A stretch of DNA of 64,000 bases from an uncultured Candidatus Saccharibacteria bacterium. Lineage in GTDB: Bacteria > Patescibacteriota > Minisyncoccia > Phycocordibacterales > UBA9973. Positions within the stretch are counted from its first letter, which is position 1, and each line of letters starts with the position of its first letter. The notes below the pieces were generated by a model, which was given only the letters and a program-made list of their open reading frames with translations, was not told where the DNA came from and did no database searches. The stretch covers positions 2,052 through 66,051 of the forward strand of contig CAZMGK010000001.1 of assembly GCA_964565825.1 (NCBI GenBank), written 5' to 3'. Both the position numbers and the translations under genes were made by a program. Positions 8,056 to 56,945 of the stretch are shown in pieces.

Positions 8056-8107
8056 ACGTATATTTTATCATGGTACATGAGGTAAAATCTATTTCTGTCT
8101 AGTGTTT

Positions 8108-8138: not shown

Positions 8139-8705
8139 CTGTATGCTCTCTCACCTCCCTCTTGCAAAGAGGTCATTTTATCTACACTTTGGGCGTATGT
8201 AAAGCATGTAGATGTTTCTCATACCTAGACAGATAGAGGGTAAACACAGAATACACAGCTGTGTGTTACACGAATACTCATCTCCATAGGTACTCTACGG
8301 TGTATCTGTGTCCTCTGTAGCTTTGTTCTTGATATATGATATATATCAACGTATATATCATCTTGTACTTCATGATACGTCTCTTGATGAAGAGAAAAGT
8401 CAATCGAATTAAAAAATATAATCACACAACAAAAAAACACTCACTCATACATCAGAAAAATACTCTCTTGTTTCACATACCCCCTACTCTAAAAATCACC
8501 ATCATCACCGTCTCTTCACCTCTACAGCAAAAAACGCACGTTTCCACTTGTAGATTTTTTATACATCATATATACTCATACCATGTCAAATACAGATCGT
8601 GTACTTTCAGAACTTTTTGACCTCTTTTTCTGTCACTATGATGCACTGATACCGAGACTCAACGTTGAAAAAATTTTGTAAATGACTTCATGAAATAGAT
8701 TTTTA

Positions 8706-8930
8706 TTTCCAGAAACGACCTTCCAAAGCTAAGGTCCTTCCTGAAAAAAAATCGTTTAGATATTTTCCGTAAACGATTTCAGGGAGTTGAGGTCCTTCCT
8801 GATAAAAAATAAGTTGAACGACTTCCAAAAGCTGATGTTCTTCTCGAAAAAAAGACTTCAAAACATTCTCGGAAGCGACCTTCCAAAGCTAAGGTCCTTC
8901 CCGACTTAGGTGCTTCTCGAAAAATTCTAC
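8706..8930. repeat. Four degenerate tandem repeats of about 50-56 bp (consensus ...AACGACCTTCCAAAGCTAAGGTCCTTCCTGAAAAAAA...) in the 1-kb divergent intergenic region.
   Basis: CGACCTTCCAAAGCTAAGGTCCTTCC occurs at about 8717 and 8877. Diverged copies sit at about 8771 (GATTTCAGGGAGTTGAGGTCCTTCCTGATAAAAAA) and about 8822. Each unit ends in an A-run. Confidence 0.6.
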
Positions 8931-8979
8931 ATACATACACATTGTTTTTAAAAAAAGACCTGCTATACTTTATATATGG

Positions 8980-9038
8980 TTCCCGTTAGAAGTCAGCTAC
9001 TTCATATATCCACACAAGAAAAAAACAAACACGGGAAC
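8980..9038. other. Hairpin-prone element containing CCCGTTAGAAGTCAG, the reverse complement of CTGACTTCTAACGGG that recurs at 56865-56879 and within the leader modules. The stem GTTCCCG...CGGGAAC encloses about 45 nt.
   Basis: Direct string matches and complementarity read from the sequence. Confidence 0.4.
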
Positions 9039-9057
9039 TAAATAATATTTATAAGCA

Positions 9058-9100
9058 CTAATTAAGGACGGAAGTCTCAAGACTTCCTACTTCTAACGGG
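9058..9100 (+). promoter_or_regulatory. Conserved 43-nt leader module, CTAATTAAGGAC-GGAAGTC-tcaa-GACTTCC-TACTTCTAACGGG, ending exactly at the ATG.
   Basis: A near-identical module sits upstream of gatC (56763-56804, minus strand) and a diverged copy upstream of the 46297 gene. The hairpin stem shows compensatory changes: GGAAGTC/GACTTCC here versus GGAAATC/GATTTCC in the other two copies. Confidence 0.6.
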
Positions 9101-9892
9101 ATGGAAACAGAAAAAAATAATCAAGAAGTTCATCACACAAATGAACACTCACCTATTACAAGTAACGGAGAGAAAAATTCATTATCAGTAGGTTCTGCAA
9201 TTATTATTGGAGCAGTAATCATAGCGCTCGCAGTTGTCGGATCAAAGAAATTTTCTAGCTCAAGCATGCGTGATTCATCTGAATCAGTTCTTTCAACCCT
9301 CGATATTAGTGAGAAAAAATTCAAAGCTTGTTACGAAGCAAAAACACCTGAAGCAAAAATCCGCGCTCATATGGCAAGCGCAGAAAAAGCAACCAAACAT
9401 ATTCCAGAAGATCAAGGACGTGGTACACCATACAGTATTGCAATCAACCAGAAGACTGGTATGAAAATAGAAATTGCTGGAGCGTACCCGACTGAAGCAG
9501 TCACCAGTATCATAGATAGTATGTTTGCGGGTACAGCAAAAAGTCAGACTGAAATTGACATTGATCCAGTTACCGGCGAAGACCACTATTTTGGTTCAAA
9601 AGATGCAGAAATTGTAATCATAGAATACTCTGATTTGGAATGTCCATACTGTTCACGTTTTCACACAACGATGCAAGATGTAGTAGAGTCGTATGGTGGA
9701 AAAGTAGCATGGGTCTACAGACACCTCCCTCTTGAGCAACTTCACCCTAATGCATTTGATAAAGCAATCTCTTCGGAATGTATCTATGACATAGGAGGAG
9801 ATGTAAAATTCTGGGAATACATTGATTTACTCTTTAAAAAAAATGAGCCAAAGAAACCAGTGTTTGACCCGATAACAGGAGAGACGAAATAG
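9101..9892 (+). CDS. Membrane-anchored thioredoxin-fold thiol:disulfide oxidoreductase (DsbA/Thioredoxin_4-like) with a CPYC active site. It appears to lack the usual C-terminal half of DsbA-type proteins.
   Basis: N-terminal TM helix (IIIGAVIIALAVVG). Motif DLECPYCSRFH followed by VAWVYRHLPL...HPNA. The ORF stops at 9892 and a terminator hairpin follows at 9931. Confidence 0.6.
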   Translation: METEKNNQEVHHTNEHSPITSNGEKNSLSVGSAIIIGAVIIALAVVGSKKFSSSSMRDSSESVLSTLDISEKKFKACYEAKTPEAKIRAHMASAEKATKHIPEDQGRGTPYSIAINQKTGMKIEIAGAYPTEAVTSIIDSMFAGTAKSQTEIDIDPVTGEDHYFGSKDAEIVIIEYSDLECPYCSRFHTTMQDVVESYGGKVAWVYRHLPLEQLHPNAFDKAISSECIYDIGGDVKFWEYIDLLFKKNEPKKPVFDPITGETK

Positions 9893-23430: not shown

Positions 23431-23468
23431 ATAAGACTATACTACCGTATTTTAAGAAAAAAATCAAA

Positions 23469-24497
23469 TTATTGCACAACAACCATCCGGTTATCAAAAC
23501 GAGACCAATACCGCACAAAATCTTCTGATAAAATACGCAATCGCCCGTACGTCGGATCATTAACCCAAAACCATGTTTCTGGGCCTATTGTATCATACCC
23601 CACGATCAGAGAGACGTGAGTTGAGGTAAATAAAACCTCCTTCCCTTCTGGGGTGAAATAGACTAAACTCGACTGAGTCATATCGTCATCCTTGTGCCAG
23701 ACAATAACCGGATTACTGGCATCAAGAGCCGTCATAATATCATCGAGGTTCGCGTGTATTTTGGAGTATGTCTCTGGTGCGTATTTTCGTACCATATTTT
23801 CTACTGGTTTCTCATTCACACCCCAGCCGGTAGCACCAAGAAGGCCTAATGGCGCAACATAAACATGTCCTGAAACATCTCCAACAAAACCAGCATCTGG
23901 ATCACCCCACACCAGCCTACCGTTATGAGTATATTTCTTTTTGGGGAGAGCATACCCAATCTGATTCATGATTTCATCTTGGCCAAGTTCTATACGTTTG
24001 TACAGAAGCGCCATTTGAATACTCGCGGCTTCGCAGGATAAACGATATTTTTGCTCAATCAGTGGTATCGGTAATAGCACTCGTTTATCAAACAACTTTG
24101 GGGTGTCAGCACTGTCAACTGGAAAAAATGTTTTTGGGTCAAATGATTCAATTGGTGTACCACACAACATGCTATTTATCAGACGGCGCGTCATAGAACC
24201 GATTGTACCACTTTCGTATATTCCTGCTTTTTTCTGGAAAAGTGAAACTGCTTGTTCTGTTGTTGGACCATACAACCCAAATGCTTGAGGAGAAAGCTTG
24301 GGTAATACACTTTCCGAAGAAAGATGTCTTTGTATTTTCTTTGTATCTTCTATAAAAAGATTTTTACGCCATAGATTATTTTTGACAGATGCATCACAAA
24401 AAACATCTTGCATTGCAAAAACAGGAGTAGGAAAAGTAATTGCACAAATAAGTATTAATAAAAATAAGCGTGAATGCATGTGCACACAGTATAGCAA
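23469..24497 (-). CDS. Secreted protein with a peptidoglycan-binding domain followed by a C39-like (papain-fold) peptidase domain.
   Basis: Signal peptide LFLLILICAITFPTPVFA; PG_binding_1-like segment (GPTTEQAVSLFQKKAGIYESGTIGSMT); YRLSCEAASIQMAL resembling the Peptidase_C39_2 Cys motif. Confidence 0.55.
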   Translation of the reverse strand: MLYCVHMHSRLFLLILICAITFPTPVFAMQDVFCDASVKNNLWRKNLFIEDTKKIQRHLSSESVLPKLSPQAFGLYGPTTEQAVSLFQKKAGIYESGTIGSMTRRLINSMLCGTPIESFDPKTFFPVDSADTPKLFDKRVLLPIPLIEQKYRLSCEAASIQMALLYKRIELGQDEIMNQIGYALPKKKYTHNGRLVWGDPDAGFVGDVSGHVYVAPLGLLGATGWGVNEKPVENMVRKYAPETYSKIHANLDDIMTALDASNPVIVWHKDDDMTQSSLVYFTPEGKEVLFTSTHVSLIVGYDTIGPETWFWVNDPTYGRLRILSEDFVRYWSRFDNRMVVVQ

Positions 24498-33893: not shown

Positions 33894-33901
33894 ACGAACA
33901 T

Positions 33902-34903
33902 ATGAAAAAGACATACTTCAAAAAACTTATTATCCTCGGAGCCTTTGTAGTTTTCTCTGTACTTGCAGGGAGTGCTTCAGCCTGTACTATCTACGATGAA
34001 GGCTGTAATCGATACGAGGACCATTTACCTCAAATATACGGAAATAATTACACAGGCCAAGGGCAAAACTATCCTGTATACCAAAATCCGCAAGGGGCGT
34101 ATTATGCTGTTTCGAACTACCAACAACCACAGTATATTCCGCAGGCACCTATCGTCATGAGTAACGATAGCTACACTGGTCAAAACTACGGAGGTACTTC
34201 ATCAACCACAAACACTGCAGGAAACACATCATCCCAAAACGAAAACTCGGATGAAAATCCAGGTCTCTTGAGTAGTATTTTTGGTAACAAATCTACTGCT
34301 GCCAAAAAAAACACCTTTTCAAATGGGTCTGAGACGATAGAAGCTGATCAAAATCTCCAAGCGCTCGTCAACAGTAAAGGACTCGCTATGGGAACAAATA
34401 ATGGACTCTGTGGGACAACACAGAAAGAAGACTACCTCATCTTGTACAAAAACATCACCGGAGTCACTGTGACAAATGTCGCTATTCGAATGAGTCTCCC
34501 AACGGGGATTACTCCAACAAATACGAGTGGTGGATCATACTCAGAAAGAGACAACACTGTTACCTTTTTTATTGGCGTACTTGCGCCAGACCAAACTGGA
34601 CAAATCCTTCTTCCTGTCAAAAAAACGGGAACCATAGAAGGAGTCGCTCGTAGCGAAATGGTCTACACACTCCCGAATCAAAATCAGAACATGGTTGTTG
34701 CGTACGCCTTTGGAAACGGTACCTGTGCACAGAGTGTCCTCGGCGCAAGTGCTATTGGAAGTGGAAACAATTTATTTGGAGGAACACTCCTCGGATGGAT
34801 ATTCCTAGCTCTTCTTGTTGGTGCATTTATTTACCTATTTAGATTTTTCTTACTCAGAAAACAAGCTCATCATGGAGGTGATGGACATGGTCACGGACAC
34901 TAA
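33902..34903 (+). CDS. Secreted/cell-surface protein with a Q/N/Y-rich low-complexity region, a DUF11/CARDB-like beta domain, a C-terminal TM anchor and a His-rich tail.
   Basis: Signal peptide; YPVYQNPQGAYYAVSNYQQPQY; C-terminal LLGWIFLALLVGAFIYLF + HHGGDGHGHGH. Confidence 0.6.
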   Translation: MKKTYFKKLIILGAFVVFSVLAGSASACTIYDEGCNRYEDHLPQIYGNNYTGQGQNYPVYQNPQGAYYAVSNYQQPQYIPQAPIVMSNDSYTGQNYGGTSSTTNTAGNTSSQNENSDENPGLLSSIFGNKSTAAKKNTFSNGSETIEADQNLQALVNSKGLAMGTNNGLCGTTQKEDYLILYKNITGVTVTNVAIRMSLPTGITPTNTSGGSYSERDNTVTFFIGVLAPDQTGQILLPVKKTGTIEGVARSEMVYTLPNQNQNMVVAYAFGNGTCAQSVLGASAIGSGNNLFGGTLLGWIFLALLVGAFIYLFRFFLLRKQAHHGGDGHGHGH

Positions 34904-34914
34904 TTGATCTCTCT

Positions 34915-34956
34915 GAAAAAAGCGGGGCAAACCAAAGGTTTGCCCCGCTTTTTTAC
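34915..34956. terminator. Bidirectional terminator AAGCGGGGCAAACC-aaa-GGTTTGCCCCGCTT + T6.
   Basis: 14-bp stem flanked by A/T tracts; between convergent genes. Confidence 0.75.
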
Positions 34957-37943
34957 ACACTCAGTATTTTCTGTATACGCGCACATGACTCACAAGGAGA
35001 TTGTGAACCATATGACTTTGCATTGCATGGACGTTCTGTCCATTTTCCAGAAAGAAGCAACTCTTGATAATCATGAATATCTTTCACAAGTAACTCTACG
35101 GTGTCTCGTTCTACGCGTGTCTGATAGAGCGCATGTTTAGCGTCTCCTTCTTCAAGAAAAAGAAGTCGCGATTCACTCACCCACGCACCTTCAACACCTT
35201 CTATTAAATACGAATACATCGCCAGCTGACGCATCAAACTCGACAGTCGGCCATCTTCTGTCATTTTTTCTACGACTCCTGCCGTCTTACTCTTTCCTGT
35301 TTTGAAATCAGTCACCACAATCGTTCCATCTGGGTATCTTTCTGTGAGGTCAATTTTTCCATGCATGATCAGATTTGGAAACCGTTTGTCTCTATACGAG
35401 ATATTTCTTTCAGAGACATGGTCAGTTGCGAGTGCCTGATAGTACGTATCTATCCAATACACAATCGCCGTGCGTGCCTCTACAAGTAATCGTGCAACAT
35501 CTTTTTTGTTGGTAATTCTTTCTTTTTCTAATTCATACACAATATGACTATCAATGGACGTGATCTGTGGACGTGTCTCTTGTTTCAAGATATATTCAAT
35601 CGTCCCATGAACGACAGACCCAAGCGCAAGTGATACACTTTTTGTTTCTGGAAGTTTTAAGAAATTTCTAAAATACCATTTCCATGGGCAATCAAAAAAG
35701 TTATTGAGCATCGACACAGAAATTTTTGTTTCGGTGAATCGTTCTCTCACAAAACGCTGTATATCGGGGATCAGTTTCTGGTCTACACACACGAGCGGTT
35801 TCAGTGCGTAATTTTTTGGATTTTCAGAAAGTATGTATGCTTCATTGTCCCCTGCACTCACTCTGTCAAAATGATCTACAGTGAGATCTGAAATACTGTG
35901 CACAAGTTCGAGCTCTCCCCCGTCGTCTTTGTGGAGAGAGTAGCTCAAAGTACAGAAACGTTTACTACGGGTAATAGCAACATAGAGTTCTCTTTTTGTG
36001 GACATTTCAGTACGGACACTTACTTTTTCTTTTATTTTCTCTGGTAAGGTAAATGCTGTCGTTTTTTCACTCATGAGTATTTCTTCATTGACATGAGCAA
36101 TCCACACATACTCATATTCAAGTCCTTTTGATTTATGAAACGTATTTATGGAAATACCCTCTTTTGCGCCAAGGTGTGCAATGGAAACTTGATTGCCATA
36201 CAATTTGAGACGTGTAAAATATTCAAGAAAATCTCTTAATTTCTTTGTCTGTTGTTTTTCCTCAAACAGAGTGGCGCTGTGGATATAGGTTCTGACAATT
36301 TCAATTGCCAACAATAAACGATCGTGAGTTTGAGCTTCTTCTATCAACAGTTCATTCCCAATGATACTCACGACATGTGTTAGTGGCTCGTGAGTTAGTG
36401 TTTCTATCCAGGTTTTTAGTTTCTTTCCAAATAATGCGATAGGATTTTCTTCACCAAAAAGCCCATCATGGTCTCCTGCGTGTGCAATCATATCGACAGT
36501 GAGCTCAGTCCCTTTTTTGAGATTTTTTAAAAACGTATGTGCTGTGATTGGTGGGATCAAACTTGTTTCATCGAGCATCAGTTCACACAAAAGCACATGG
36601 TCGGTTGGATCGACTATGCACTGAAGTACGCGCATCATACTCTCTGCTTGAGGCGTATTCAACAGTGATACATGTTGTTCGGACACAACAGGAAGCCCCA
36701 TGCTCCGAAACAAGGTTGTGGCATTTTTGACATGCTTGTTTTTAGGCAAGAGTAGTGCACACTGTTTTGGGTCTACACCACTTGCAATTACTTTTTTGAA
36801 GTAGAGACCCGCACCGATGAGTTCGTCACGAGTATACTCAAATTCAGACAAGGTGATTTTATCAAGCCCAAGAGTATTGCTGGAAAGCGATTCAGTTGCG
36901 AGGCTACTTTTTAAGATATCATCGGCTAAAGCTAAAATCGGTTTGGTCGAACGGTAATTTTCAGAGAGGACAATTTTTTTTGCATCCCCAAAACTTGTTT
37001 GAAAATCAGTAAAATAATCTATATTTGCCCCAGAAAATCCGTAAATAAGTTGCCGGTCATCACCGACAACAAAAATGTTTGGCTGTTCGACTGGGTTCTC
37101 TCTATCTGCCCAGACAGCTTTGAGAAAACTATTTTGAATATTATTTGAATCCTGATGTTCATCAACCAGTACGTACAGATAACTTTCTTGAACCAAAGAC
37201 CGTACGTCTTCGTAGTCAGAGACCAATGTGACGGCGTACTCCAATACGTCATTGTAGTCCATAAAATTATTTTCTTTCTTGAGTTTTTCATATTCTGTAT
37301 AAAAGGTGACAATCTCAGCCGTACGGTTAAGACTATCGATTCTTTTTTCTATCTCTTTTTTCAATTGGCCCTTGGTTGGTCCACGAGAAGAAATATTTTC
37401 TGGATCAGCTCGAAGTTCTGCTATTTCAGATTCAATTTCTAATTTGAAATCAATCGGCGTAATGAGCTCACGTTTCAAAAAAGAAATAAGATTGGTCAAA
37501 TCAGAAAAATATTTTGTCTTGTCGATCCTTGGTGTGAGGTATTCCCATGTGTGAGTCTCGAGTAATTCATCAATCAAAAAAACTGCTTCTCTTTCATCAA
37601 GAAGTTTTGGTGGGTGGGTAAAATCGAGTAGTTCATAATTTTTTTCTACAAGATCAATCGCAAAACTATGAAATGTCGTAATACGTACATCTCGCGCCGT
37701 ACTCCCAATATATTTTTCAAGTCGTTCCTGCATTGCTGAAACACCAGAGCGAGTAAACGTCAGACACAGTATTCCAGACGCCTCGGAGAGGTTTTCATTC
37801 AAAATATGCGCAATGCGAAGCGTCAGTACTTGAGTTTTTCCAGTACCAGGTCCGGCAATAACCATGACTGGACCTTCGGTCGATTCAACAGCTTGTTTTT
37901 GTTGTGTGTTGAGTTTTTGTAGTGCTTCTTCAAAATCTTTCAT
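34953..37943 (-). CDS. UvrD/PcrA-family ATP-dependent DNA helicase fused to a C-terminal RecB-family PD-(D/E)XK nuclease with a Cys cluster (AddA/AdnB-like architecture).
   Basis: Walker A (VIAGPGTGKTQ), motif II (VDEHQD). The C-terminus has GKIDLTERY...VTDFKTGKS plus CPWKWYF...CNAKSYGSQSPCESC. Confidence 0.8.
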   Translation of the reverse strand: MKDFEEALQKLNTQQKQAVESTEGPVMVIAGPGTGKTQVLTLRIAHILNENLSEASGILCLTFTRSGVSAMQERLEKYIGSTARDVRITTFHSFAIDLVEKNYELLDFTHPPKLLDEREAVFLIDELLETHTWEYLTPRIDKTKYFSDLTNLISFLKRELITPIDFKLEIESEIAELRADPENISSRGPTKGQLKKEIEKRIDSLNRTAEIVTFYTEYEKLKKENNFMDYNDVLEYAVTLVSDYEDVRSLVQESYLYVLVDEHQDSNNIQNSFLKAVWADRENPVEQPNIFVVGDDRQLIYGFSGANIDYFTDFQTSFGDAKKIVLSENYRSTKPILALADDILKSSLATESLSSNTLGLDKITLSEFEYTRDELIGAGLYFKKVIASGVDPKQCALLLPKNKHVKNATTLFRSMGLPVVSEQHVSLLNTPQAESMMRVLQCIVDPTDHVLLCELMLDETSLIPPITAHTFLKNLKKGTELTVDMIAHAGDHDGLFGEENPIALFGKKLKTWIETLTHEPLTHVVSIIGNELLIEEAQTHDRLLLAIEIVRTYIHSATLFEEKQQTKKLRDFLEYFTRLKLYGNQVSIAHLGAKEGISINTFHKSKGLEYEYVWIAHVNEEILMSEKTTAFTLPEKIKEKVSVRTEMSTKRELYVAITRSKRFCTLSYSLHKDDGGELELVHSISDLTVDHFDRVSAGDNEAYILSENPKNYALKPLVCVDQKLIPDIQRFVRERFTETKISVSMLNNFFDCPWKWYFRNFLKLPETKSVSLALGSVVHGTIEYILKQETRPQITSIDSHIVYELEKERITNKKDVARLLVEARTAIVYWIDTYYQALATDHVSERNISYRDKRFPNLIMHGKIDLTERYPDGTIVVTDFKTGKSKTAGVVEKMTEDGRLSSLMRQLAMYSYLIEGVEGAWVSESRLLFLEEGDAKHALYQTRVERDTVELLVKDIHDYQELLLSGKWTERPCNAKSYGSQSPCESCARIQKILSV

Positions 37944-44722: not shown

Positions 44723-46224
44723 ACAAAAAAGAAATGCGCATGATTGCCAGAAATCCTGACCTAATTACCTTCCCTGCACATATCAAAGAAGAGCTCGCGA
44801 ATATTCCTGAAACAATTACAGGTGCTGAAATAAAAAATCGCCGTGATTTTCGACATATTGCAACATGTACTATTGACCCAGATGACGCAAAAGATTTTGA
44901 CGATGCGATTTCGTTTCTTGTGCTTCCAGATGGAACAAAAGAAATTGGTATCCACATCGCGGATGTTGGACACTACGTACAGGAAAAAACAAAACTTGAT
45001 AAAGAAGCTTACAAACGTGGGACGTCTATCTACCTCACCAACACGGTTGTGCCGATGTTGCCAGAAAAAATATCAAACGACGTTTGTAGTCTCAAGGAAA
45101 AAGTCGACAGACTTACGTTCTCTGTCGTGGTTATATTCGACAAGAAAGATACCATCATCCACACATGGTGCGGAAAAGGTATTATTCATTCAAATAAACG
45201 ATTCACTTATAGCGGGGCACAAAAGGTAATAGACGACAAAGCTGGAATCTATGCCGAGGAACTTTTAGAACTCAAACGTATTTCAGGTACTCTTATGAAA
45301 AAACGTGAACGAGACGGAGCGCTCTTCCTCGAAGACACAGAAATTCGATTTACCTATGACCAGGACGGCAACCCAATTGGGGTACAACAAAAAGTCCGCC
45401 TCGATACGATGAAACTCGTCGAAGAATTTATGCTTTTAGCAAACAGGACAGTTGCAGAACAATTTACCAAAGATGAGCCATTTGTCTATCGTATCCACGA
45501 CAACCCTGACCGAGAAAAACTCAATGCACTCCATGACCACGGACGAGAATACGGTATCGAGATTCCAAAAAAACTCGACAACCATACACTCAATCACTTG
45601 ATACAGAGTATAGAGAATGAAGACTTGCGTTCACATTTCTCAAAAATAATTATGCGCAGTATGGCGAAAGCAGTCTATTCAAGTAACAACATCGGACACT
45701 ATGGATTGGCGTTCGATCAGTATACACATTTCACTTCCCCTATCAGACGGTATCCAGACCTCATTGCACACAGACTGCTTTTAGATAAACTCCAACATAA
45801 ACAAAAACCTATTGATGTACGTGAATTTGAAAAAAAGCTCATCTACCTGTCGACCTGTGAAAGAAAAGCTCAAGACATCGAACGTGCAAGCACCAAAGAC
45901 ATGCAGATAAAATACATGGGAAATTTTCTAGGTATGGAACGTACTGGTGTTGTCACCGGCCTCACTGAAATCGGTATATACGTTTCTGACAAAGAATCAC
46001 TCTCGGAAGGTTTCATCCACCAAAGAACTCTCGGCCGAGACTGGAAATGGAATGACAAACAACTCTTCTGGAAAAACGAAAAAATTGGTAAAATAAAAAT
46101 GGGAGATCATATTACATTCAAAGTTGAGAAAGTAAATTTTGACAAAGGTTTTATCGATTATAGTTTATGCAATCCCGTTAGAGATACACAAACTACTATC
46201 TCAATGAGACACAGTAAAAAATAG
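44723..46224 (+). CDS. rnr: RNase II/R-family 3'-5' exoribonuclease (RNB domain + C-terminal S1). The ORF track starts it at 44404, but the first 100 codons overlap pilin repeat DNA; the likely start is the ATG at 44723 or the GTG at 44673.
   Basis: RNB motifs (IDPDDAKDFDDAISF, HFTSPIRRYPDLIAHR) plus an S1-like C-terminus. Confidence 0.8.
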
Positions 46225-46253
46225 ACAAAAATGTATGAAATATTATCAAGACA

Positions 46254-46296
46254 TTAATAATAAAACGGAAATCTTTGATTTCCTGTCGTAAGCGGG
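46254..46296 (+). promoter_or_regulatory. Third, diverged copy of the conserved leader module (…ACGGAAATC-tttg-GATTTCC-TGTCGTAAGCGGG-ATG).
   Basis: The 19-nt CGGAAATCTTTGATTTCCT is identical to the gatC copy, and the ATG spacing is the same. Confidence 0.55.
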
Positions 46297-48657
46297 ATGC
46301 AAGAAAAATTAGAACTTTTTAAAATACATTGGAATGATTTTCGTGCTTTTTTAGCAGAACATCGCAGAAGCATGATACTATGGATATTTGCATGTGTCTG
46401 TCTTTTTGTCATTGCTCCCTTCGTCTATTCATATATTTCTTTTAATCAAAAATTTGGTGATAGAAACACATCGCAATCAGAGCACATAGAAACACCGACT
46501 CATACACTCGAACAGATTCAAGAAATTATCGAACCAGAACGTATTGTATTTGAAAAAATTGCAGAAGAGTCTTTTCTTCCTCCACAAAAAGGAAAAATGA
46601 TTCGTGTCAATTTGTACACCATGACACTCAAGCAATACGAAAATGGGACGCTTGTTGGTTCAAAAAAGATACTCAGTAAAGCAGTTAAAGGAAGCCTCTG
46701 GGAAATCCCGAGTGGAAGTTATCCTATTTCTAACTCTAACGAAGACTACTACTCGACAAATGTTGGAGCGTGGATGCCGTATGCTATTAACTTATTCGGA
46801 AATTATTTTATTCACGGAGAGCCACACGACGCCAAAGGACGAACACTTCCCCTCTCTTTCAAAAATGGAGGTATCAGACTCAACACAACAGATGCACGAG
46901 CGTTGTTTGATTGGACAGACCCAGATACGCGTATCTCGGTCTATAGTGACAGCACCCTTGTACCTGCTCCTATTTCAGCAGAATCAGTCTATGTATCTGC
47001 CGATGGAACCATTAAACCTAAAGTCAGTGCAGAAGCATACATTGTTGCGGACATAGATACAGGTGAAATTATTCTCCAAAAAGACAAAGACGTACCGTAC
47101 GCTATTGCATCTACGACAAAACTCATGACTGCTGTGGTATCAGTAGAAAATCAAAATCAATTTGATTATGCAACAGTATCAAAAAAGGCAATCGACACGT
47201 ATGGTTTCTCTGGATATGTGCCAGGAGAAAAAATAGAACTTTCAAATTTACTCAATCCGCTTCTACTTCCCTCTTCAAATGACGCAGCAGAAATTATTGC
47301 CGAGCATTTTAACCGGACCCAGTTTCTTGCAAAAATGAATGGAAAAGCAACAGAGCTTGGTATGGATAACACAACGTTTGAAGATGCAAGCGGACTTTCA
47401 GCGAATAATAAAGCATCAGCCCACGATCTCTTCAGACTCGCGCAATATATTACTCATGAAAAACCATTTATTTGGGATATTACAAAAAGACGTGTGTACA
47501 GTGCTCAAGGTCACACTGCAAAAAATATCAGTCAATTTTTAAATGATAAAAATCTCATTGGATCAAAACCTGGCTTTACGTATGAAGCAAAACAATCAAA
47601 CGTCGGAGTCTGGGAATTACAACTCTCTGAGATCACCAAACGAAAAATTGCAATCATCATCCTGCGGTCAAATGACCGGTATCGTGACACACAAAATATA
47701 CTCTCCTATCTTAAAAAACAAGTTATCTACGGCCGTGATGGAAGGTTTGTTATTTCTGGGCCAAAAAACAAAGACAAAGAACTGAGTATGCGTTTTACCG
47801 GTGACATTATGCTTGATCGCGGTGTGCGATATTCTGTCAATAAAAATTTTAATGGTGACTACACAAAACTTTTCACCAATCTTGATTCGTACAAAGATGC
47901 TGATATTTTCTTTGCTAATTTAGAAGGACCAGTGTCTGATAAAGGAAAGGATTCAAAAAACATGTACTCATTTCGTATGGAACCACGCATACTGCCAATG
48001 CTTCAAGATGTAGGTCTCGATATTGTCTCATTTGCAAATAACCATGTTGGAGACTGGGGCCTCGAAGCATTTTCTGATTCACTCTCTCAATTAGAACAAG
48101 CAAACATTGCGTATACGGGGGCTGGGATGAAGTTTGAAGATGCGCGTGAACCAACAATTATTGAACGTAAAAATATGAAGATCGGATTTCTTGGTTTTTC
48201 AGATGTTGGGCCGTCATGGTTACACAACACAGAAACAGAAGGCTACGGTATCAACAAACTAGACACAGACACCTTTAATGAACTTGTCTCCAGCGCAACA
48301 AAAAAAGTCGACGTTCTTATCGTGTCAGTCCATTGGGGTGCAGAATATTCCACCACTACTGAAAGGCAACGAGAATTTGCACATCGAGCAATAGATAGTG
48401 GTGCAAAAATTGTCGTCGGTCACCATCCTCATGTCGTCCAACCACTAGAAGTCTACAAAGGAGGTCTTATCGCGTATAGCCTAGGGAATTTTATTTTCGA
48501 TCAAGGATTCTCAAAAGATGTCATGCGTGGGCTGACCCTTGAAGTTCTGATTGATACAGATGAAAAGTACATTAAACAATACAACACCTATATCACAGAA
48601 CAGAACGCGTACTTTGTCCCAGGTGCCCCTTTTAAAGAAAGAGTACTCGAGGAATAA
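46297..48657 (+). CDS. Tri-domain cell-envelope fusion protein: a YkuD (L,D-transpeptidase)-like domain whose catalytic Cys appears replaced (…KNGGIRL…), a serine-type D-Ala-D-Ala carboxypeptidase (S11/DacA-like, SxxK = ASTTKLMT), and a CapA/PgsA-like metallophosphatase domain.
   Basis: N-terminal TM. HG...NGGIRL in place of the usual SHGC(I/V)R. AYIVADIDTGEIILQKDKDVPYAIASTTKLMT. CapA motifs DIFFANLEGP, FANNHVGDWG, VHWGAEY, VVGHHPHVVQP. Confidence 0.8.
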   Translation: MQEKLELFKIHWNDFRAFLAEHRRSMILWIFACVCLFVIAPFVYSYISFNQKFGDRNTSQSEHIETPTHTLEQIQEIIEPERIVFEKIAEESFLPPQKGKMIRVNLYTMTLKQYENGTLVGSKKILSKAVKGSLWEIPSGSYPISNSNEDYYSTNVGAWMPYAINLFGNYFIHGEPHDAKGRTLPLSFKNGGIRLNTTDARALFDWTDPDTRISVYSDSTLVPAPISAESVYVSADGTIKPKVSAEAYIVADIDTGEIILQKDKDVPYAIASTTKLMTAVVSVENQNQFDYATVSKKAIDTYGFSGYVPGEKIELSNLLNPLLLPSSNDAAEIIAEHFNRTQFLAKMNGKATELGMDNTTFEDASGLSANNKASAHDLFRLAQYITHEKPFIWDITKRRVYSAQGHTAKNISQFLNDKNLIGSKPGFTYEAKQSNVGVWELQLSEITKRKIAIIILRSNDRYRDTQNILSYLKKQVIYGRDGRFVISGPKNKDKELSMRFTGDIMLDRGVRYSVNKNFNGDYTKLFTNLDSYKDADIFFANLEGPVSDKGKDSKNMYSFRMEPRILPMLQDVGLDIVSFANNHVGDWGLEAFSDSLSQLEQANIAYTGAGMKFEDAREPTIIERKNMKIGFLGFSDVGPSWLHNTETEGYGINKLDTDTFNELVSSATKKVDVLIVSVHWGAEYSTTTERQREFAHRAIDSGAKIVVGHHPHVVQPLEVYKGGLIAYSLGNFIFDQGFSKDVMRGLTLEVLIDTDEKYIKQYNTYITEQNAYFVPGAPFKERVLEE

Positions 48658-49640: not shown

Positions 49641-49660
49641 GCTATTTTTTATTTGTTTTT

Positions 49661-51928
49661 TTATTTGGCGTATTCTTCTGCCTCTGTAAACTTAATAGAG
49701 AGTAGTTTTGATGCGCCATCGGCTGACACAGTCACTCCATAGAGTATTCCCGCACGTGACATGGTTTCTCTGTTGTGAGTCACCACAACCAGTTGCGATA
49801 CTTTGGAGAGATTTTCAATCATATCTCCATAGCGTCTTGAATTAGCTTCATCGAGAGCTGCGTCTGTTTCATCAAGTACCAAAAATGGTGGTGGGTTAAC
49901 CTGAGACATAGCAAACAACAGTGCGATAGACGTAAGTGATCGTTCTCCACCTGAGAGCATGCCGAGTTCTTTTACTTTCTTCTGAGGGAGAGATACATGA
50001 ATATCAATACCACGTTCAAATTCCATTTCGGTTTCATTATCTTGGGGTATGGCGATATCTTCACTCTCTTCTTCGTCTTTTCTTTTTCTTCTGTGTTCTG
50101 TAGACAAAGACAATGAGGCGGTTCCACCACCAAACATCAAAGAAAAGAACTGGGCAAAAGAATCATTGATTTTCAAAATACCTGTCTTAAATTCAGAATC
50201 AAGTCTCAGTTTCAAGTCAGCAATCAATGCTCGTAATTCTGAAATAGATCTCTCGAGGTCAGACAATTCTGTTGCCAAAAATACATCTCGTTCTTGTGTT
50301 GCCTCGTATTCTTTCATTGTATCACTACCGCCAAGTCCACCTGACTCTTCTAATTTTATTTTTACTCGTTCAATTTTTCGGCGTATTTCATCTTGACGCG
50401 TCGCATCTATTTCTTGTACTGGGTGTTCTTTGGGCGTATACGTTGGCATATCAGAGCCCAATAGAGCTAATCCTTCACGGAGTTCGTTTTCAAAAAATTC
50501 TTCTTTACTGTGAATACGTGATTCCTCGCTCGTCAAATTTTGTAAATGAATGTGTAGTGCTTCTTTTTTACTCAAAACTTCGTAATACTCTTTGTCTGCA
50601 TATACACGCTGTGTACGCTCTTCGGACATTTTTTGCTCAATTTCTGCGCGCTCTGATACAAGTGTACTTGTTTCAAATTCAAGTACTTTAATTTTTTCCT
50701 CAATAACATTAATATCTTGATCTATTTTTTGTATATGCTCTGTATTATCTATTGCTTCTGGTGTAACCTCAGTGTCTTCTAGATATTCACTATTTTGAAC
50801 AATATGAAGCTGTGCATCACGAGCAGTGTTATGTATAAAAGAAATATCTGTAGATTGGACAATAGATACGAGTCTCGTTGTGATTTCATTAAATGTTTTT
50901 TTGACCAGACTGTGCGGAATAAATTTTTCTCGATACTCTACCGGTTTTGGTTTTTCTAATAGCGCTTCTTTTGTTCCTTCTAGTCTCCCTAACGAACGCT
51001 CGAGTTCATTCTTGAGGCGATTATGCTCGTGTATTGAATGCAACACAGCATCATAGTGCGATTGAAAGAGAGATGTCGTAACTGCTGTTCTGTTTTGCTC
51101 AAGCGTATGCAACAGATCAGTTACAGTATTGTATGATATGTGCATCTCTTGCTTCTTATGTAAAAAAGTTTCTTTCAAATCAGTTATATGCTGATACTCA
51201 TGTTGAATATACTCAGTGTACAAATCCATTAATTCAAAACGGAGGTTTGCTGCTTTTTCTATTTTCTCAACTTGTTTTTTGAGATACAAGAGATGTGGTG
51301 CGAGCTCGCGTTTGAGTGCTTGTATCTCTTTTATATTCGTCTCTGTTCTGTCAAGACGTCGTTCTGTTTCTTTTATTCTAAATTGGTATATCTTGAGACC
51401 GAGAGCGTCTTCTATCATAACGCGTCTATCGCGAGAATTTGCAGAAAGTATTCTATCGGCTTCACCTTGTGAAATAATATGATGACCAGATGCACCAATA
51501 TTCACAGAAGAAAGAAGCTCGATAATATCTTTGAGTCGTACTTCGGTGTCATTTATTTTATACGTATTTGCACCATCAGAAAAGACTTCACGACTAATGC
51601 GGACTTCGTCATATGACAGTAATTTTGTTTTTGTATCACTCGTATCACCAAAAGTGAATAGCTTTTTCCGATTATCAAATGTAATGGTTACTGATGCTCG
51701 AGATAGCGGAGGAAGTTGTTTGGAACCTTTAAAGATGAGGTCACTCCCCCCTTTACCGCGGAGAGATTTAATAGATTGTTCACCGAGCACAAAACGAATT
51801 GCTTCAACCACGTTTGATTTACCTGAACCGTTGGGACCAACAATACCTGCCACAGGAGAGTCAAAAACCAAAACAGTCTTTTTTGCAAAAGACTTAAAAC
51901 CTGCTAATTCTATACTCTTCAAAACCAT
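49661..51928 (-). CDS. smc: SMC-family chromosome-segregation ATPase (short form, 755 aa)
   Basis: N-terminal Walker A (GPNGSGKSN), long coiled coil, C-terminal signature LSGGERSLTSIALLFA and Walker B FLVLDETDAALD. Conserved rnc-smc adjacency. Confidence 0.8.
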   Translation of the reverse strand: MVLKSIELAGFKSFAKKTVLVFDSPVAGIVGPNGSGKSNVVEAIRFVLGEQSIKSLRGKGGSDLIFKGSKQLPPLSRASVTITFDNRKKLFTFGDTSDTKTKLLSYDEVRISREVFSDGANTYKINDTEVRLKDIIELLSSVNIGASGHHIISQGEADRILSANSRDRRVMIEDALGLKIYQFRIKETERRLDRTETNIKEIQALKRELAPHLLYLKKQVEKIEKAANLRFELMDLYTEYIQHEYQHITDLKETFLHKKQEMHISYNTVTDLLHTLEQNRTAVTTSLFQSHYDAVLHSIHEHNRLKNELERSLGRLEGTKEALLEKPKPVEYREKFIPHSLVKKTFNEITTRLVSIVQSTDISFIHNTARDAQLHIVQNSEYLEDTEVTPEAIDNTEHIQKIDQDINVIEEKIKVLEFETSTLVSERAEIEQKMSEERTQRVYADKEYYEVLSKKEALHIHLQNLTSEESRIHSKEEFFENELREGLALLGSDMPTYTPKEHPVQEIDATRQDEIRRKIERVKIKLEESGGLGGSDTMKEYEATQERDVFLATELSDLERSISELRALIADLKLRLDSEFKTGILKINDSFAQFFSLMFGGGTASLSLSTEHRRKRKDEEESEDIAIPQDNETEMEFERGIDIHVSLPQKKVKELGMLSGGERSLTSIALLFAMSQVNPPPFLVLDETDAALDEANSRRYGDMIENLSKVSQLVVVTHNRETMSRAGILYGVTVSADGASKLLSIKFTEAEEYAK

Positions 51929-55060: not shown

Positions 55061-56482
55061 CTATTTTAAAACATTTTCAATATCTTTACCAATAGTAAAA
55101 AGATTTTCTTCGTTAAAAGCTGGGCCGATCAACTGAATTCCAAACGGAAGTCCTTTCGTATCCATACCAAGGGGAATAGAAATAGCAGGATCTCCAGTAA
55201 TATCTGCGGGCACAACAAAAATATCTTCCAAATACATAGACACAGGGTCGCCTGATTTTTCACCAAAGGTAAATGCAGTACCTGCAGTTGTCGGTGTCAC
55301 GATAGCATCGACAGTTTCATATACTGCGTTGAGTTCTTTTTTGATTTGTTCTTTCATAAGAAGCGCCTTACCGTAGTAAGCATCATAGTATCCGTGAGAG
55401 AGTACATAGGTTCCAAGGAGAATTCTTCGGCGAACTTCTTTTCCAAAACCAGTACCACGAGTTTTACTATATACATCAAGGAGTGATGGGTGTTCTTCAC
55501 TGTATCCATAGCGAATACCATCAAAACGAGCGAGGTTGGATGATGCTTCTGCTGGTTGGATAATATAGTACACAGGAAGCGAATAAGAAATGTAATCAAG
55601 ATTAATCGGTACAATTTCATATCCTTCATTTTTAAGCATTTCTATTGTTTGTTTAAATTTCTCCAATACTTCAGCCTGTACTCCCCCACTTTCAAAAAAG
55701 TGATACGGTACACCGATTTTTTTCTTGAGATCTTTTTTGTAGGTTGTACGCATATCAATAGGAACAGAAGTACTATCGTGTGTGTCGTATGTCGCGAGAA
55801 GATTGAAAGCAATTTCTGCATCAGTCACAGTCTTGGTCATTGGACCGATCTGATCAAGTGAACTCGCAAGCGCAACAAGTCCAAAACGAGACATGGTCCC
55901 ATATGTTGGTTTGAGCCCAACAAGATTACAATATGATGCTGGCTGACGAATAGATCCACCAGTGTCAGAACCAAGCGACAGAAGTGCTCCATCCATTGCC
56001 ATAGCTGCTGCTGGCCCACCTGATGAACCCCCAGGAACACGAGTAACGTCGTATGGGTTTTTTGTGTTGCCAAAATAGCTCGTTTCAGTCGAAGATCCCA
56101 TAGCAAATTCATCCATGTTCGTACGGCCAATAATCACTGCACCTTGTTTTTTGAGATCTGATACAAGCGTACTATCGTATGTACCAACATAATTTTCGAG
56201 TATCTTTGACCCACACGCTGACACGTGTCCAGTGTAGAGCATATTGTCTTTGATCGCTGTAGGTATTCCAGTAAGAGGTGTTGCAATACCATCATCTATC
56301 ATTTTTTGCGCAGTCGCGATTTGCGCATCGAGGTCTGAAAATATCTCCACATATGCGTTAATCTCACTATTTCGTGCACGAGCTTGAGTCACATACATAT
56401 CAACAAGTGCGCGGACCGTGAGCTCTTTATTGACGAGGAGTGCGTGAGCACTCTCTATTGTTAGATCTTTCAGATTAATCAT
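55061..56482 (-). CDS. gatA: Glutamyl-tRNA(Gln) amidotransferase subunit A
   Basis: Amidase signature GGSSGGPAAAMA...; 473 aa. Confidence 0.95.
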   Translation of the reverse strand: MINLKDLTIESAHALLVNKELTVRALVDMYVTQARARNSEINAYVEIFSDLDAQIATAQKMIDDGIATPLTGIPTAIKDNMLYTGHVSACGSKILENYVGTYDSTLVSDLKKQGAVIIGRTNMDEFAMGSSTETSYFGNTKNPYDVTRVPGGSSGGPAAAMAMDGALLSLGSDTGGSIRQPASYCNLVGLKPTYGTMSRFGLVALASSLDQIGPMTKTVTDAEIAFNLLATYDTHDSTSVPIDMRTTYKKDLKKKIGVPYHFFESGGVQAEVLEKFKQTIEMLKNEGYEIVPINLDYISYSLPVYYIIQPAEASSNLARFDGIRYGYSEEHPSLLDVYSKTRGTGFGKEVRRRILLGTYVLSHGYYDAYYGKALLMKEQIKKELNAVYETVDAIVTPTTAGTAFTFGEKSGDPVSMYLEDIFVVPADITGDPAISIPLGMDTKGLPFGIQLIGPAFNEENLFTIGKDIENVLK

Positions 56483-56762
56483 TGTTGATAATTTTATTTA
56501 CTTCTAAATAGCCATTTTTTTCTTTCGGGAAATTTGCTTTGATGCGAGATTGCGTATCAAAATTACTATCATGTGCAACATCTTCTCGGGTAACATTTTG
56601 CACAACAGGTGTTACTTTTTCACCAGTTTCAATGTGCGCATTTTCTATTTGTTTAATATAGCCCAAAATAGTATTCATATCATTGGACAATGCCCCTGCT
56701 TCTTCGTCTGTGACAGAAAGCCGTGCAAGCCCTGCGAGTTTTTGTATGTCTTCGGTGGTCAT
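56475..56762 (-). CDS. gatC: Glutamyl-tRNA(Gln) amidotransferase subunit C
   Basis: 95 aa, ...LAGLARLSVTDEEA...; overlaps the gatA start. Confidence 0.85.
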   Translation of the reverse strand: MTTEDIQKLAGLARLSVTDEEAGALSNDMNTILGYIKQIENAHIETGEKVTPVVQNVTREDVAHDSNFDTQSRIKANFPKEKNGYLEVNKIINND

Positions 56763-56804
56763 CCCGTTAGAAGTAGGAAATCAAAGATTTCCGTCCTTAA
56801 TTAG
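56763..56804 (-). promoter_or_regulatory. Conserved leader module (minus strand: CTAATTAAGGAC-GGAAATC-tttg-GATTTCC-TACTTCTAACGGG-ATG) directly upstream of gatC.
   Basis: 41/43 identity with 9058-9100. The two differences in the stem are compensatory (G->A paired with C->T). Confidence 0.6.
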
Positions 56805-56840
56805 CTGGTAATAAAATAATAAACTTTTGTGCATGATGTA

Positions 56841-56879
56841 CCCGTTATATACTAGTAACCTATCTGACTTCTAACGGGA
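56841..56879 (+). other. Hairpin CCCGTTA-(24 nt)-TAACGGG containing CTGACTTCTAACGGG; related to 8980-8996 and to the leader modules.
   Basis: Direct sequence matches. Confidence 0.4.
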
Positions 56880-56914
56880 GTCATATCAATAATCTACCAC
56901 AAAATAGACAATAT

Positions 56915-56945
56915 AAAAAACCGCTTATGAGGCGGTTTGATATTT
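56915..56945 (-). terminator. plsC terminator AACCGCTTATGAGGCGGTT flanked by A6 and T-rich sequence; it overlaps the stop codon.
   Basis: Stem plus U-tract on the minus strand. Confidence 0.6.

Follow-up and report, generated by a model that had tools for sequence, protein, structure and literature searches.

The window analysed here, 64,000 nucleotides of contig CAZMGK010000001.1 (assembly GCA_964565825.1, positions 2,052 to 66,051 of the forward strand) from an uncultured Candidatus Saccharibacteria bacterium, contains three copies of a small repeated unit, elements A, B and C, each ending at the start codon of a gene. An earlier note on this DNA had treated two parts of this unit as separate features, i.e. 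a recurring 15-mer, CTGACTTCTAACGGG, lying free in local hairpins, and a conserved leader module that abuts the ATG of a downstream gene. Based on sequence comparison, we consider it very likely that these are the left repeats and the right ends of recently active insertion elements, which resemble miniature inverted-repeat transposable elements (MITEs), reside at start codons and derive from cassettes encoding a GIY-YIG nuclease. The recurrent "leader" of a Candidate Phyla Radiation (CPR) genome is in this way explained as mobile DNA, and essential genes (secY, topA, ribosomal protein genes, gatC) can carry a structured insertion of ~120 nt exactly at their start codon.

Recurring motifs as the two ends of one unit

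The last 12 bases of the 15-mer, ACTTCTAACGGG, are present in four copies in the window compared with 0.13 expected, and none of 100 shuffled sequences reached four. A meaningless chance recurrence of a 12-15-mer, in favour of which there is nothing beyond the low copy number in the window, is ruled out by this excess together with the exact recurrence of the motif in 56 loci of other genomes. The 15-mer lies on the minus strand exactly where it had been placed (8982-8996), while its plus-strand site is 56864-56878 and not 56865-56879, an offset of one. Two of the 12-mer copies adjoin an ATG, at 9089-9100 before the ATG at 9101, and on the minus strand at 56774..56763 before the ATG at 56762..56760. 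These belong to the only two 43-nt leader modules of the window, and a free copy is found upstream of the ATG-abutting copy in both cases, by 107 nt at locus A and by 104 nt at locus B. The local hairpins are also present as described, with GTTCCCG (8979-8985) facing CGGGAAC (9032-9038) and CCCGTTA (56841-56847) facing TAACGGG (56872-56878). What follows the free motif is indeed a CATAT-type sequence instead of ATG, namely AACCATAT and AGTCATAT; on the opposite strand these read ATATGGTT and ATATGACT, the duplicated start codons upstream. Each free copy is antisense to its module copy, and the pair constitutes an inverted repeat of 13-14 bp.

To extend this analysis beyond the window one genome per bacterial species was scanned with a pattern that required only the base of the inner hairpin and the right arm. 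The scan returned 56 loci, all in assemblies of Patescibacteria/CPR (~45 genomes), with the left arm at the expected distance in almost every one, so that free copies and leader modules occur near-exclusively as convergent pairs ~105 nt apart, as in the window. The suggested link between the two is therefore real. The further proposal that free copies are processed pseudo-copies, decoys or separate regulatory partners did not hold: as the units have flanking duplications, are missing from empty sites in relatives and share their ends with coding elements, we identify the free copies as the left terminal inverted repeats of an inserted element and the leader module as its right end. Overall, the observation made in the earlier note is confirmed and its interpretation partly supported.

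Three insertions and their empty sites

Element B (~117 bp, 56763..56879, minus strand) precedes gatC (56475..56762, minus strand; PF02686 for the orthologue). Reading in the direction of the gene, it consists of a left arm (56879..56867; the 15-mer covers plus-strand positions 56864-56878), the other half of the local hairpin (56841-56847), an inner hairpin (56794..56776) and a right arm (56774..56763). The left copy of the target-site duplication, ATGAC (56880..56884, minus strand), holds the original gatC start codon, which now begins an upstream open reading frame (uORF) that reads MTPVRSQIGY before its stop, while the right copy is provided by the first bases of gatC, ATGAC. The element is absent from a relative represented by a metagenome-assembled genome (L063/L154), whose GatA is 95% identical and whose flanking DNA is 86-93% identical. 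There the sequence reads ...GGTAGATTATTGAT|ATGAATACCGAAGACATA, compared with ...GGTAGATTATTGAT-ATGAC[117 bp]ATGACCACCGAAGACATA in the window. An extended -10-like box native to gatC, TGGTAGATT (56891..56899, minus strand), lies 6 nt before the original ATG and is identical in the empty relative L063.

Element A (~119 bp, 8981..9100, plus strand) is built in the same way, with a left arm at 8981-8993 (the 15-mer corresponding to 8982-8996), the internal CGGG that completes the local hairpin (9032-9038), ACGGAAGTCTCAAGACTTCC as the inner hairpin (9068-9087) and a right arm at 9089-9100, A9101 being paired with T8981. The inner hairpins of loci A and B differ by one compensatory change from G-C to A-T. 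The host gene (9101..9892, plus strand) encodes a membrane-anchored thioredoxin/DsbA-like protein (PF13462), and its first bases, ATGGA, form the right duplication copy. The left copy, ATGG plus T (8976..8980, plus strand), contains the original start codon, which now begins a 21-codon uORF, MVPVRSQ... Locus A is empty in the DsbA-like homologues L071 and L072, which are more distant (67-70% identical). The empty site of L072 reads TGCTATACTTTTGTT|ATGGAAACAGAAG. An extended -10-like box native to this gene, TGCTATACT, was read from the sequence at 8961..8969 (plus strand), 6 nt before the original ATG, and the same box stands at the same spacing in L072; the arrangement is TGCTATACT-TTTGTT-ATGGAAACAGAAG in the homologues and TGCTATACT-TTATAT-ATGG[TT...119 bp...ATGG]AAACAGAAA in the window.

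A third, degenerate member that the earlier note did not mention, element C, occupies 124 bp at 46173..46296 (plus strand). Its left duplication copy, ATGCAA (46167..46172, plus strand), lies inside the 3' end of an RNase R-like gene, whose reading frame now continues into the element and ends with ...LCNPVRDTQTTISMRHSKK and a stop codon. Its left arm has the sequence CCCGTTAGAGAT, a variant characteristic of the GIY-YIG-coding relatives, the inner hairpin (46265-46283) is identical to that of element B, and the right arm, GTCGTAAGCGGG, is degenerate. The host gene (46297..48657, plus strand), a fusion of a D-Ala-D-Ala carboxypeptidase with a PGA_cap domain, begins with ATGCAA, the right duplication copy. 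The site is empty in the close relative L154, where the RNase R-like gene overlaps the start of the next gene.

All three window copies therefore have an empty counterpart, B and C in the closest relative and A in the more distant homologues. As the relatives have uninterrupted sites, we interpret the copies as recent insertions with target-site duplication that are specific to this lineage. A profile search of the window yielded no copies beyond A, B and C, and no element is present in the 21 kb of the relative with synteny to the window, where just two isolated, unpaired 9-mer matches with one mismatch each were noted. The orthologue of a gene that does carry an element in the relative (L045) does not lie within the window. 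Like MITEs, the window copies are short (116-124 bp, well within ~500 bp) and non-coding with only short uORFs, have terminal inverted repeats and a duplication verified by empty sites, and occur in multiple dispersed copies.

Relatives encoding a GIY-YIG nuclease

At locus L009 the variant arms CCCGTTAGAGAT and ATCTCTAACGGG enclose an open reading frame (ORF) of 95 codons, which uses the duplicated upstream ATG as its start, spans both arms and stops at a TGA overlapping the ATG of murG. Its product matches PF01541 (GIY-YIG) with E = 2.5e-16, and the nearest solved structures are the UPF0213 proteins PDB 1zg2 and 1ywl (E = 5e-7). The protein has 2691 homologues, mostly of exactly 95 aa, with near-invariant termini (MNPVRD and RFLSLTG) that represent the translated arms. 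We then characterized coding cassettes of this kind using contexts from an exact look-up and from 80 metagenome loci that had been gathered on the basis of protein similarity and not of their arms. They measure 272-278 bp between the arm ends, and their only ORF encodes an 86-95-aa GIY-YIG nuclease of the minimal UPF0213/Slx1-like type. The cassettes are flanked by the same duplication, mostly TGAA, and the next gene is co-directional, with its ATG overlapping the nuclease stop as ATGA. Miniature and coding forms share not only the inverted repeat but also the right terminal ~24 nt (TTTCCTAYYTCTAACGGG) beyond it and the first ~20 nt on the left. The homing-endonuclease-family ORF is present in the coding relatives and lacking from the window copies. 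From this we infer that the miniature elements are internal-deletion derivatives of the GIY-YIG cassettes, as MITEs are of transposons.

Alternatively, the units could be ordinary MITEs moved in trans by a conventional transposase (DDE or other), with the GIY-YIG cassettes being passengers or independent elements with similar ends. This would be in line with the composition of the GIY-YIG protein, which is a catalytic domain only with no DNA-binding domain; moreover, we know of no GIY-YIG transposase in prokaryotes, and none was found in our literature search. However, GIY-YIG is the sole ORF between such arms, no other having been found in ~150 elements, and the cassettes have a fixed size, ends that are fixed inside the ORF and the same duplication and target as the miniatures, with an end homology that extends past the inverted repeat. 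A search for distant arms that might surround a conventional transposase, and so mark an autonomous element, gave L042 as the sole candidate; its arms, separated by 2.3 kb, have ordinary genes between them, among them rpsO and one for a Xer-like recombinase, and were rejected as a chance pairing. We consider a conventional transposase rather unlikely, and prefer descent of the miniatures from the nuclease cassettes.

Termini, duplications and target sites

The window elements are flanked by direct repeats of 4-5 bp that contain the start codon (ATGG for A, ATGAC for B), with ATGCAA flanking C. Across the family flank pairs such as ATGAA/ATGAA, ATGGA/ATGGA, ATGTA/ATGTA and ATGCG/ATGCG are found, and the base after ATG is equal on both flanks in 45 of 52 elements (permuted mean 17.9). 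Identical 4-bp flanks are present in 51 of 76 miniature elements and 52 of 77 coding forms, where permutation gives means of 14.1 and 29.2, respectively. Flank identity holds for targets other than ATG as well (TTGA, TAAA, CGAG), and a few of these lie only some bases before the start codon.

The base preceding CCCG covaries with the base following CGGG (T..A in 133 and C..G in 17 elements), and where the termini are C..G the host start codon is GTG. Since the base next to each arm thus belongs to the element, its ends are T...A and the duplication comprises 4 bp, sometimes 5. The rebuilt host start codon consists of the last base of the element, which is A or in some relatives G, and the duplicated TG. 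Comparison of the flanks shows that the elements inserted into TGNA from the second base of the start codon, duplicating 4-5 bases and leaving the host ORF untouched. The original ATG now lies ~120 nt upstream, and in loci A and B it is still found 6 nt past the extended -10 box of the gene. Exactly at a start codon, with an ORF of 60 aa or more behind it, are 59 of 76 miniature elements (78%) and 56 of 77 coding forms (73%), compared with 6.9% of all ATGNA sites in the genome loci and the window.

We also considered the transcription start of leaderless genes as the actual target. This is unsupported, as element C lies inside an operon, at a start codon overlapping the preceding gene, and the pooled upstream profile of the elements contains only a weak -10 signal.

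In a few elements with C...G ends (L121:1256-1534, L010:7830-7897, L014:193-308) the duplicated flank is (G)TTGA(C), a sequence similar to a -35 box and not a start codon, and these elements may represent a subfamily with another target preference.

Family members in other Patescibacteria

In gene orientation both loci A and B read ATATG-(GTT/ACT)-CCCGTTAGAAGTCAG, ~75 variable nt, CTAATTAAGGACGGAA-(hairpin)-TTCCT-ACTTCTAACGGG-ATG, or, in a more general form, ATG-NNT-CCCGTTAGAAGTCAG...ACGGAA-hairpin-TTCCT-ACTTCTAACGGG-ATG. The left arm is T-CCCGTTAGAAGT and the right arm ACTTCTAACGGG-A, located at the ATG of the gene. Unit lengths fall into tight classes, mostly 113-123 bp, with further classes of ~76 and 97 bp. 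Besides the three copies in the 64-kb window, several genomes gave 2-4 hits, and the flanking sequences contain ~10 extra copies per 412 kb.

The position of the unit in the 5' untranslated region, directly before the ATG, raises the possibility of a cis-regulatory leader RNA, i.e. a riboswitch or attenuator in which the upstream arm sequesters the start-codon region upon a signal. The conservation of a long-range helix, compensatory changes in the inner hairpin, a competing local hairpin in a third of the copies and a short uORF spanning the upstream arm would all be in agreement with such a device. In contrast, the genes that follow the right arm are unrelated and often essential (topA, gltX, rplC, rpsD, secY, hpf, ruvC, gatC four times, a LexA-like gene, murG, pnp, and the DsbA-like gene in the window), which rules out a leader of the regulon type. 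The unit is moreover missing from the orthologues of relatives, with flanks that are otherwise collinear at the gatC and third loci, is flanked by direct repeats derived from the target, occurs in both orientations relative to the gene and has protein-coding relatives with the same ends. Rfam gave no match at gathering thresholds, and around locus A searches with E up to 10 returned only chance-level hits to Bacteroides sRNAs; no tRNA or tmRNA was found. Because of the empty sites and duplications, a leader RNA as the primary nature of the unit is largely refuted and highly improbable.

The orientation of the copies also bears on a second explanation, an inverton, in which an invertible promoter segment is flipped by a site-specific recombinase. 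Inverted repeats of 13-14 bp around ~90 bp would suit this, as would the internal TGnTATAAT of some members (13 of 46 miniature elements compared with 6 in shuffles) and the gatC module, which faces the gene in the window and points away from it in L044, L048 and L056. Yet inversion creates neither flanking direct repeats nor empty sites, and the reversed gatC copies belong to a different size class (74-76 bp compared with 117 bp in the window), which identifies them as independent insertions and not flips; several lineages have thus acquired an element at the gatC start codon independently of each other. Recombinase genes are not regularly found next to the units, the L042 arms around a Xer-like gene also enclose ordinary genes, and no recombinase-like ORF flanks loci A, B or C among the window ORFs, which were read by eye with no family scan. 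Elements A and B lack a clear internal promoter, and the TGnTATAAT box is absent from the window copies. An inverton is thus extremely improbable.

A hairpin module that points away from the gene whose ATG it abuts is seen in L003 and L033 as well as in the three gatC loci L044, L048 and L056. In a Nomurabacteria-type subfamily (e.g. L001, L011, L018, L024, L041, L049, L052, L055) the internal TGnTATAAT is conserved ~60 nt before the host ATG and may be an outward-reading promoter.

In the genome RS_8_2 (L035:1-900, minus strand; L009:1580-2021; L025) one gene can be preceded by two or three elements arranged in tandem. The upstream units of these arrays carry a Shine-Dalgarno (SD)-like TACTTTCGGAGGG in place of the right arm, and one array unit has a GC-rich palindrome, GCCTGCCTACCGCAGGCAGACCTGCCTGCCGGTAGGCAGG. 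A short-form hairpin element of ~50 nt (ATCCCATTAGAAC-TAACGGAA..TTCC-TACTTCTAACGGG) is found at the murG and pnp start codons (L016:2190-2390, L039:4960-5260), in both cases directly upstream of a second element with a GAGAT/GAGAC arm variant. As this short form and the variant element occur at murG and the GIY-YIG-coding form is located at the same site in L009, the murG start has been hit repeatedly.

RNA structure and translation of the host gene

The arms covary at three positions in the set collected by protein similarity (GC 86/AT 64; AT 84/GC 61; TA 125/CG 22). The inner hairpin accounts for 19 of the 21 double-change cells of the whole structure, compared with 2.9 in shuffles. A conserved secondary structure with covariation, as in riboswitches, is seen, on an alignment whose collecting pattern fixed the right arm. 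The predicted folds of the window RNAs A, B and C include the long-range helix, with -29.4 kcal/mol and z = -3.76 for A, -30 kcal/mol and z = -2.2 for B, and z = -4.6 for C. In 15 of 46 miniature elements an internal CGGG is found at a fixed distance of 18-23 nt, where it can form a local hairpin with the CCCG of the left arm (1.2 in shuffles).

Only 4 of 43 long ORFs in the window are preceded by an SD-like motif. Upstream of several ORFs, e.g. 23468-24479, 33901-34903, 34952-37943 and 49660-51928, we noted TGnTAnnnT followed after 6-8 nt by the ATG. Together these features suggest that leaderless or SD-independent initiation is widespread in this organism. The -10-like box 6 nt before the original ATG of the DsbA-like gene suggests a leaderless start, and in their empty-site versions both gatC and the DsbA-like gene are probably leaderless. 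The promoters read by eye were not called in a sigma-70 scan because they have no -35 box; support for leaderless starts accordingly comes from comparing the sequence directly with the empty sites.

Based on these data the following course of events can be envisaged. After insertion, transcription would still start at the old ATG, cross the element and reach the rebuilt ATG, and in this mRNA the arms would pair into a helix of 13-14 bp whose end coincides with the host AUG. Melting of the helix by ribosomes that load at the upstream AUG, in leaderless fashion at loci A and B, would then permit initiation at the host AUG, whereas in the coding form termination at the UGA within AUGA would lead to reinitiation on the host gene. 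The local CCCG/CGGG hairpin, present in a third of the copies including A and B, would compete with the long-range helix. Such helix melting or reinitiation may explain why essential genes tolerate the insertion. A cis-regulatory effect of arm pairing on the host mRNA, secondary to the insertion, is plausible.

A conserved leader peptide (M-D/N-P-V-R-S) was examined as the object of selection and rejected, as the arm wobble bases are invariant, the lengths and stops of the uORFs vary, and ~10 of 46 upstream ATGs have decayed. The invariant wobble bases of the uORF place the constraint on the nucleotides.

A proposed mode of mobilisation

In our working model the GIY-YIG nuclease mobilises both miniature elements and cassettes, probably by acting on the arm hairpin in single-stranded nucleic acid. 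Eukaryotic Slx1 is structure-specific, and the Slx1-like minimal fold together with this specificity would fit recognition of the arm hairpin in single-stranded DNA. We tentatively propose, as a serious possibility that falls a little short of an even chance, that the family represents a new class of prokaryotic mobile element. Its ~280-bp hairpin-ended parent would use the GIY-YIG protein as a structure-guided transposase at the TGNA of start codons, borrow the host promoter and start codon, rebuild the host start, and allow host translation via helix melting or AUGA reinitiation; it is possibly also the agent of the GIY-YIG insertions in CPR rRNA genes. If true, a GIY-YIG-based, hairpin-ended element would join the known kinds of bacterial transposable elements. 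The family would also offer a natural system for leaderless and SD-independent initiation and translational coupling in Patescibacteria, and presence/absence markers for the strain-level evolution of uncultured CPR bacteria. For annotation it would be a warning that thousands of 95-aa "GIY-YIG nuclease family proteins" and short CPR uORFs are parts of one selfish element. Our literature search returned no description of this element family, and the GIY-YIG start-codon cassettes are apparently undescribed and uncharacterised.

Several points weigh against this account. The nuclease is a bare catalytic domain that is not a known transposase and could be cargo, with the elements being moved by another, unseen enzyme. 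The duplication is not of constant length, being either 4 or 5 bp (5 or 6 when the terminal T/A is excluded from the element). The bias towards start codons could result from selection on survivors combined with a TGAA target preference rather than from true targeting, and as the pattern used to collect the miniature set accepted perfectly conserved right ends only, this set is biased towards copies under selection. Concerning translation, ~10 of 46 upstream ATGs have decayed, so a uORF cannot be a strict requirement, and in element C, whose host gene looks intact, most of the arm complementarity is gone, which means that host expression does not depend on the long-range helix. Covarying arms are equally expected of co-evolving terminal repeats bound by one protein, and the wobble-pair counts (13 versus 6) reveal no clear preference for the sense RNA strand.

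Comparison with known systems

In their working the elements appear to resemble most closely the Correia elements (CREE/NEMIS) of Neisseria, MITEs of ~100-155 bp that are co-transcribed with neighbouring genes, form a hairpin in the mRNA and sometimes supply promoters. Both are non-coding and multi-copy, carry terminal inverted repeats and a short target duplication, and lie just upstream of genes. Correia elements, however, insert into intergenic DNA with duplication of TA, possess an IHF site and repeats of 26 bp, and neither duplicate nor rebuild a start codon, and to our knowledge they have no coding parent. In contrast, the target here is TGNA in the start codon, the element contributes the first base of the new start, and GIY-YIG coding relatives exist. 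Rickettsia palindromic elements are likewise small palindromic selfish elements that are non-lethal within the gene bounds of reduced genomes. Their insertion is in frame, and the host protein includes their translation product, whereas here the host protein is unchanged, the element lies between the duplicated start codon and the real one, and the parent codes for a GIY-YIG protein.

The IS200/IS605 and REP/RAYT systems employ HUH tyrosine transposases for hairpin-dependent single-strand transposition and have neither terminal inverted repeats nor target duplication. They share with the present family a very small size, conserved covarying end hairpins and non-coding miniatures that outnumber the coding copies, but differ from it in that terminal inverted repeats and a target duplication are present here.

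Small nuclease cassettes within host genes are exemplified by mobA and the gene 60 bypass cassette of phage T4. The mobile elements of T4 also comprise free-standing GIY-YIG homing endonuclease genes, the Seg proteins (PMC2988022). Both the T4 and the present cassettes are small, lie in or between host genes, are expressed from host signals and have features that limit harm. The phage enzymes, however, have a C-terminal DNA-binding domain and long targets, and spread by double-strand-break repair with no terminal repeats or duplication. The family described here differs from such homing endonucleases in its bare catalytic domain of 86-95 aa, its inverted-repeat ends, its 4-5-bp duplications and its many unrelated sites. 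The UPF0213/YhbQ or prokaryotic Slx1-like proteins, stand-alone GIY-YIG domains of ~95 aa and a minimal variant of the fold (PMC1564403), are the closest solved relatives of the encoded nuclease, which is likewise a stand-alone domain of ~95 aa. The portions of the UPF0213/YhbQ family papers available to us describe no mobile-element context, inverted-repeat ends or start-codon insertion.

GIY-YIG-encoding insertions that are not introns have been reported from CPR rRNA genes (PMC11270868), i.e. from the same phylum as the start-codon elements. As far as the accessible part of that report goes, they lie within rRNA genes only, and ends, duplications and miniatures are not described. They may belong to the same cassette family, a likeness drawn from their description and not from sequence.

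Other features of the window

Downstream of gatC lies gatA (56482..55061, minus strand). The gene upstream of gatC ends in a terminator (56918-56938) that precedes the gatC -10-like box; this bidirectional terminator-like hairpin (AAACCGCTTATGAGGCGGTTT) lies between an acyltransferase-like gene and the gatC promoter and is kept in the relative. Between locus A and a giant gene at the start of the window, four imperfect repeats of ~40 nt (ACGACCTTCCAAAGCTAAGGTCCTTCC...GAAAAA) with a spacing of 45-58 nt occupy 8705-8924. They were found by the repeat search as family D8 and were not called by TRF, which called no tandem repeat in 8500-9000. The giant ORF itself (1-8064, minus strand) exceeds 2688 codons and runs off the window start. 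It contains many repeats of 180 nt (60 aa) and of ~300-600 nt, has a G+C content of 44-50% compared with ~39%, and probably encodes a repetitive surface protein.

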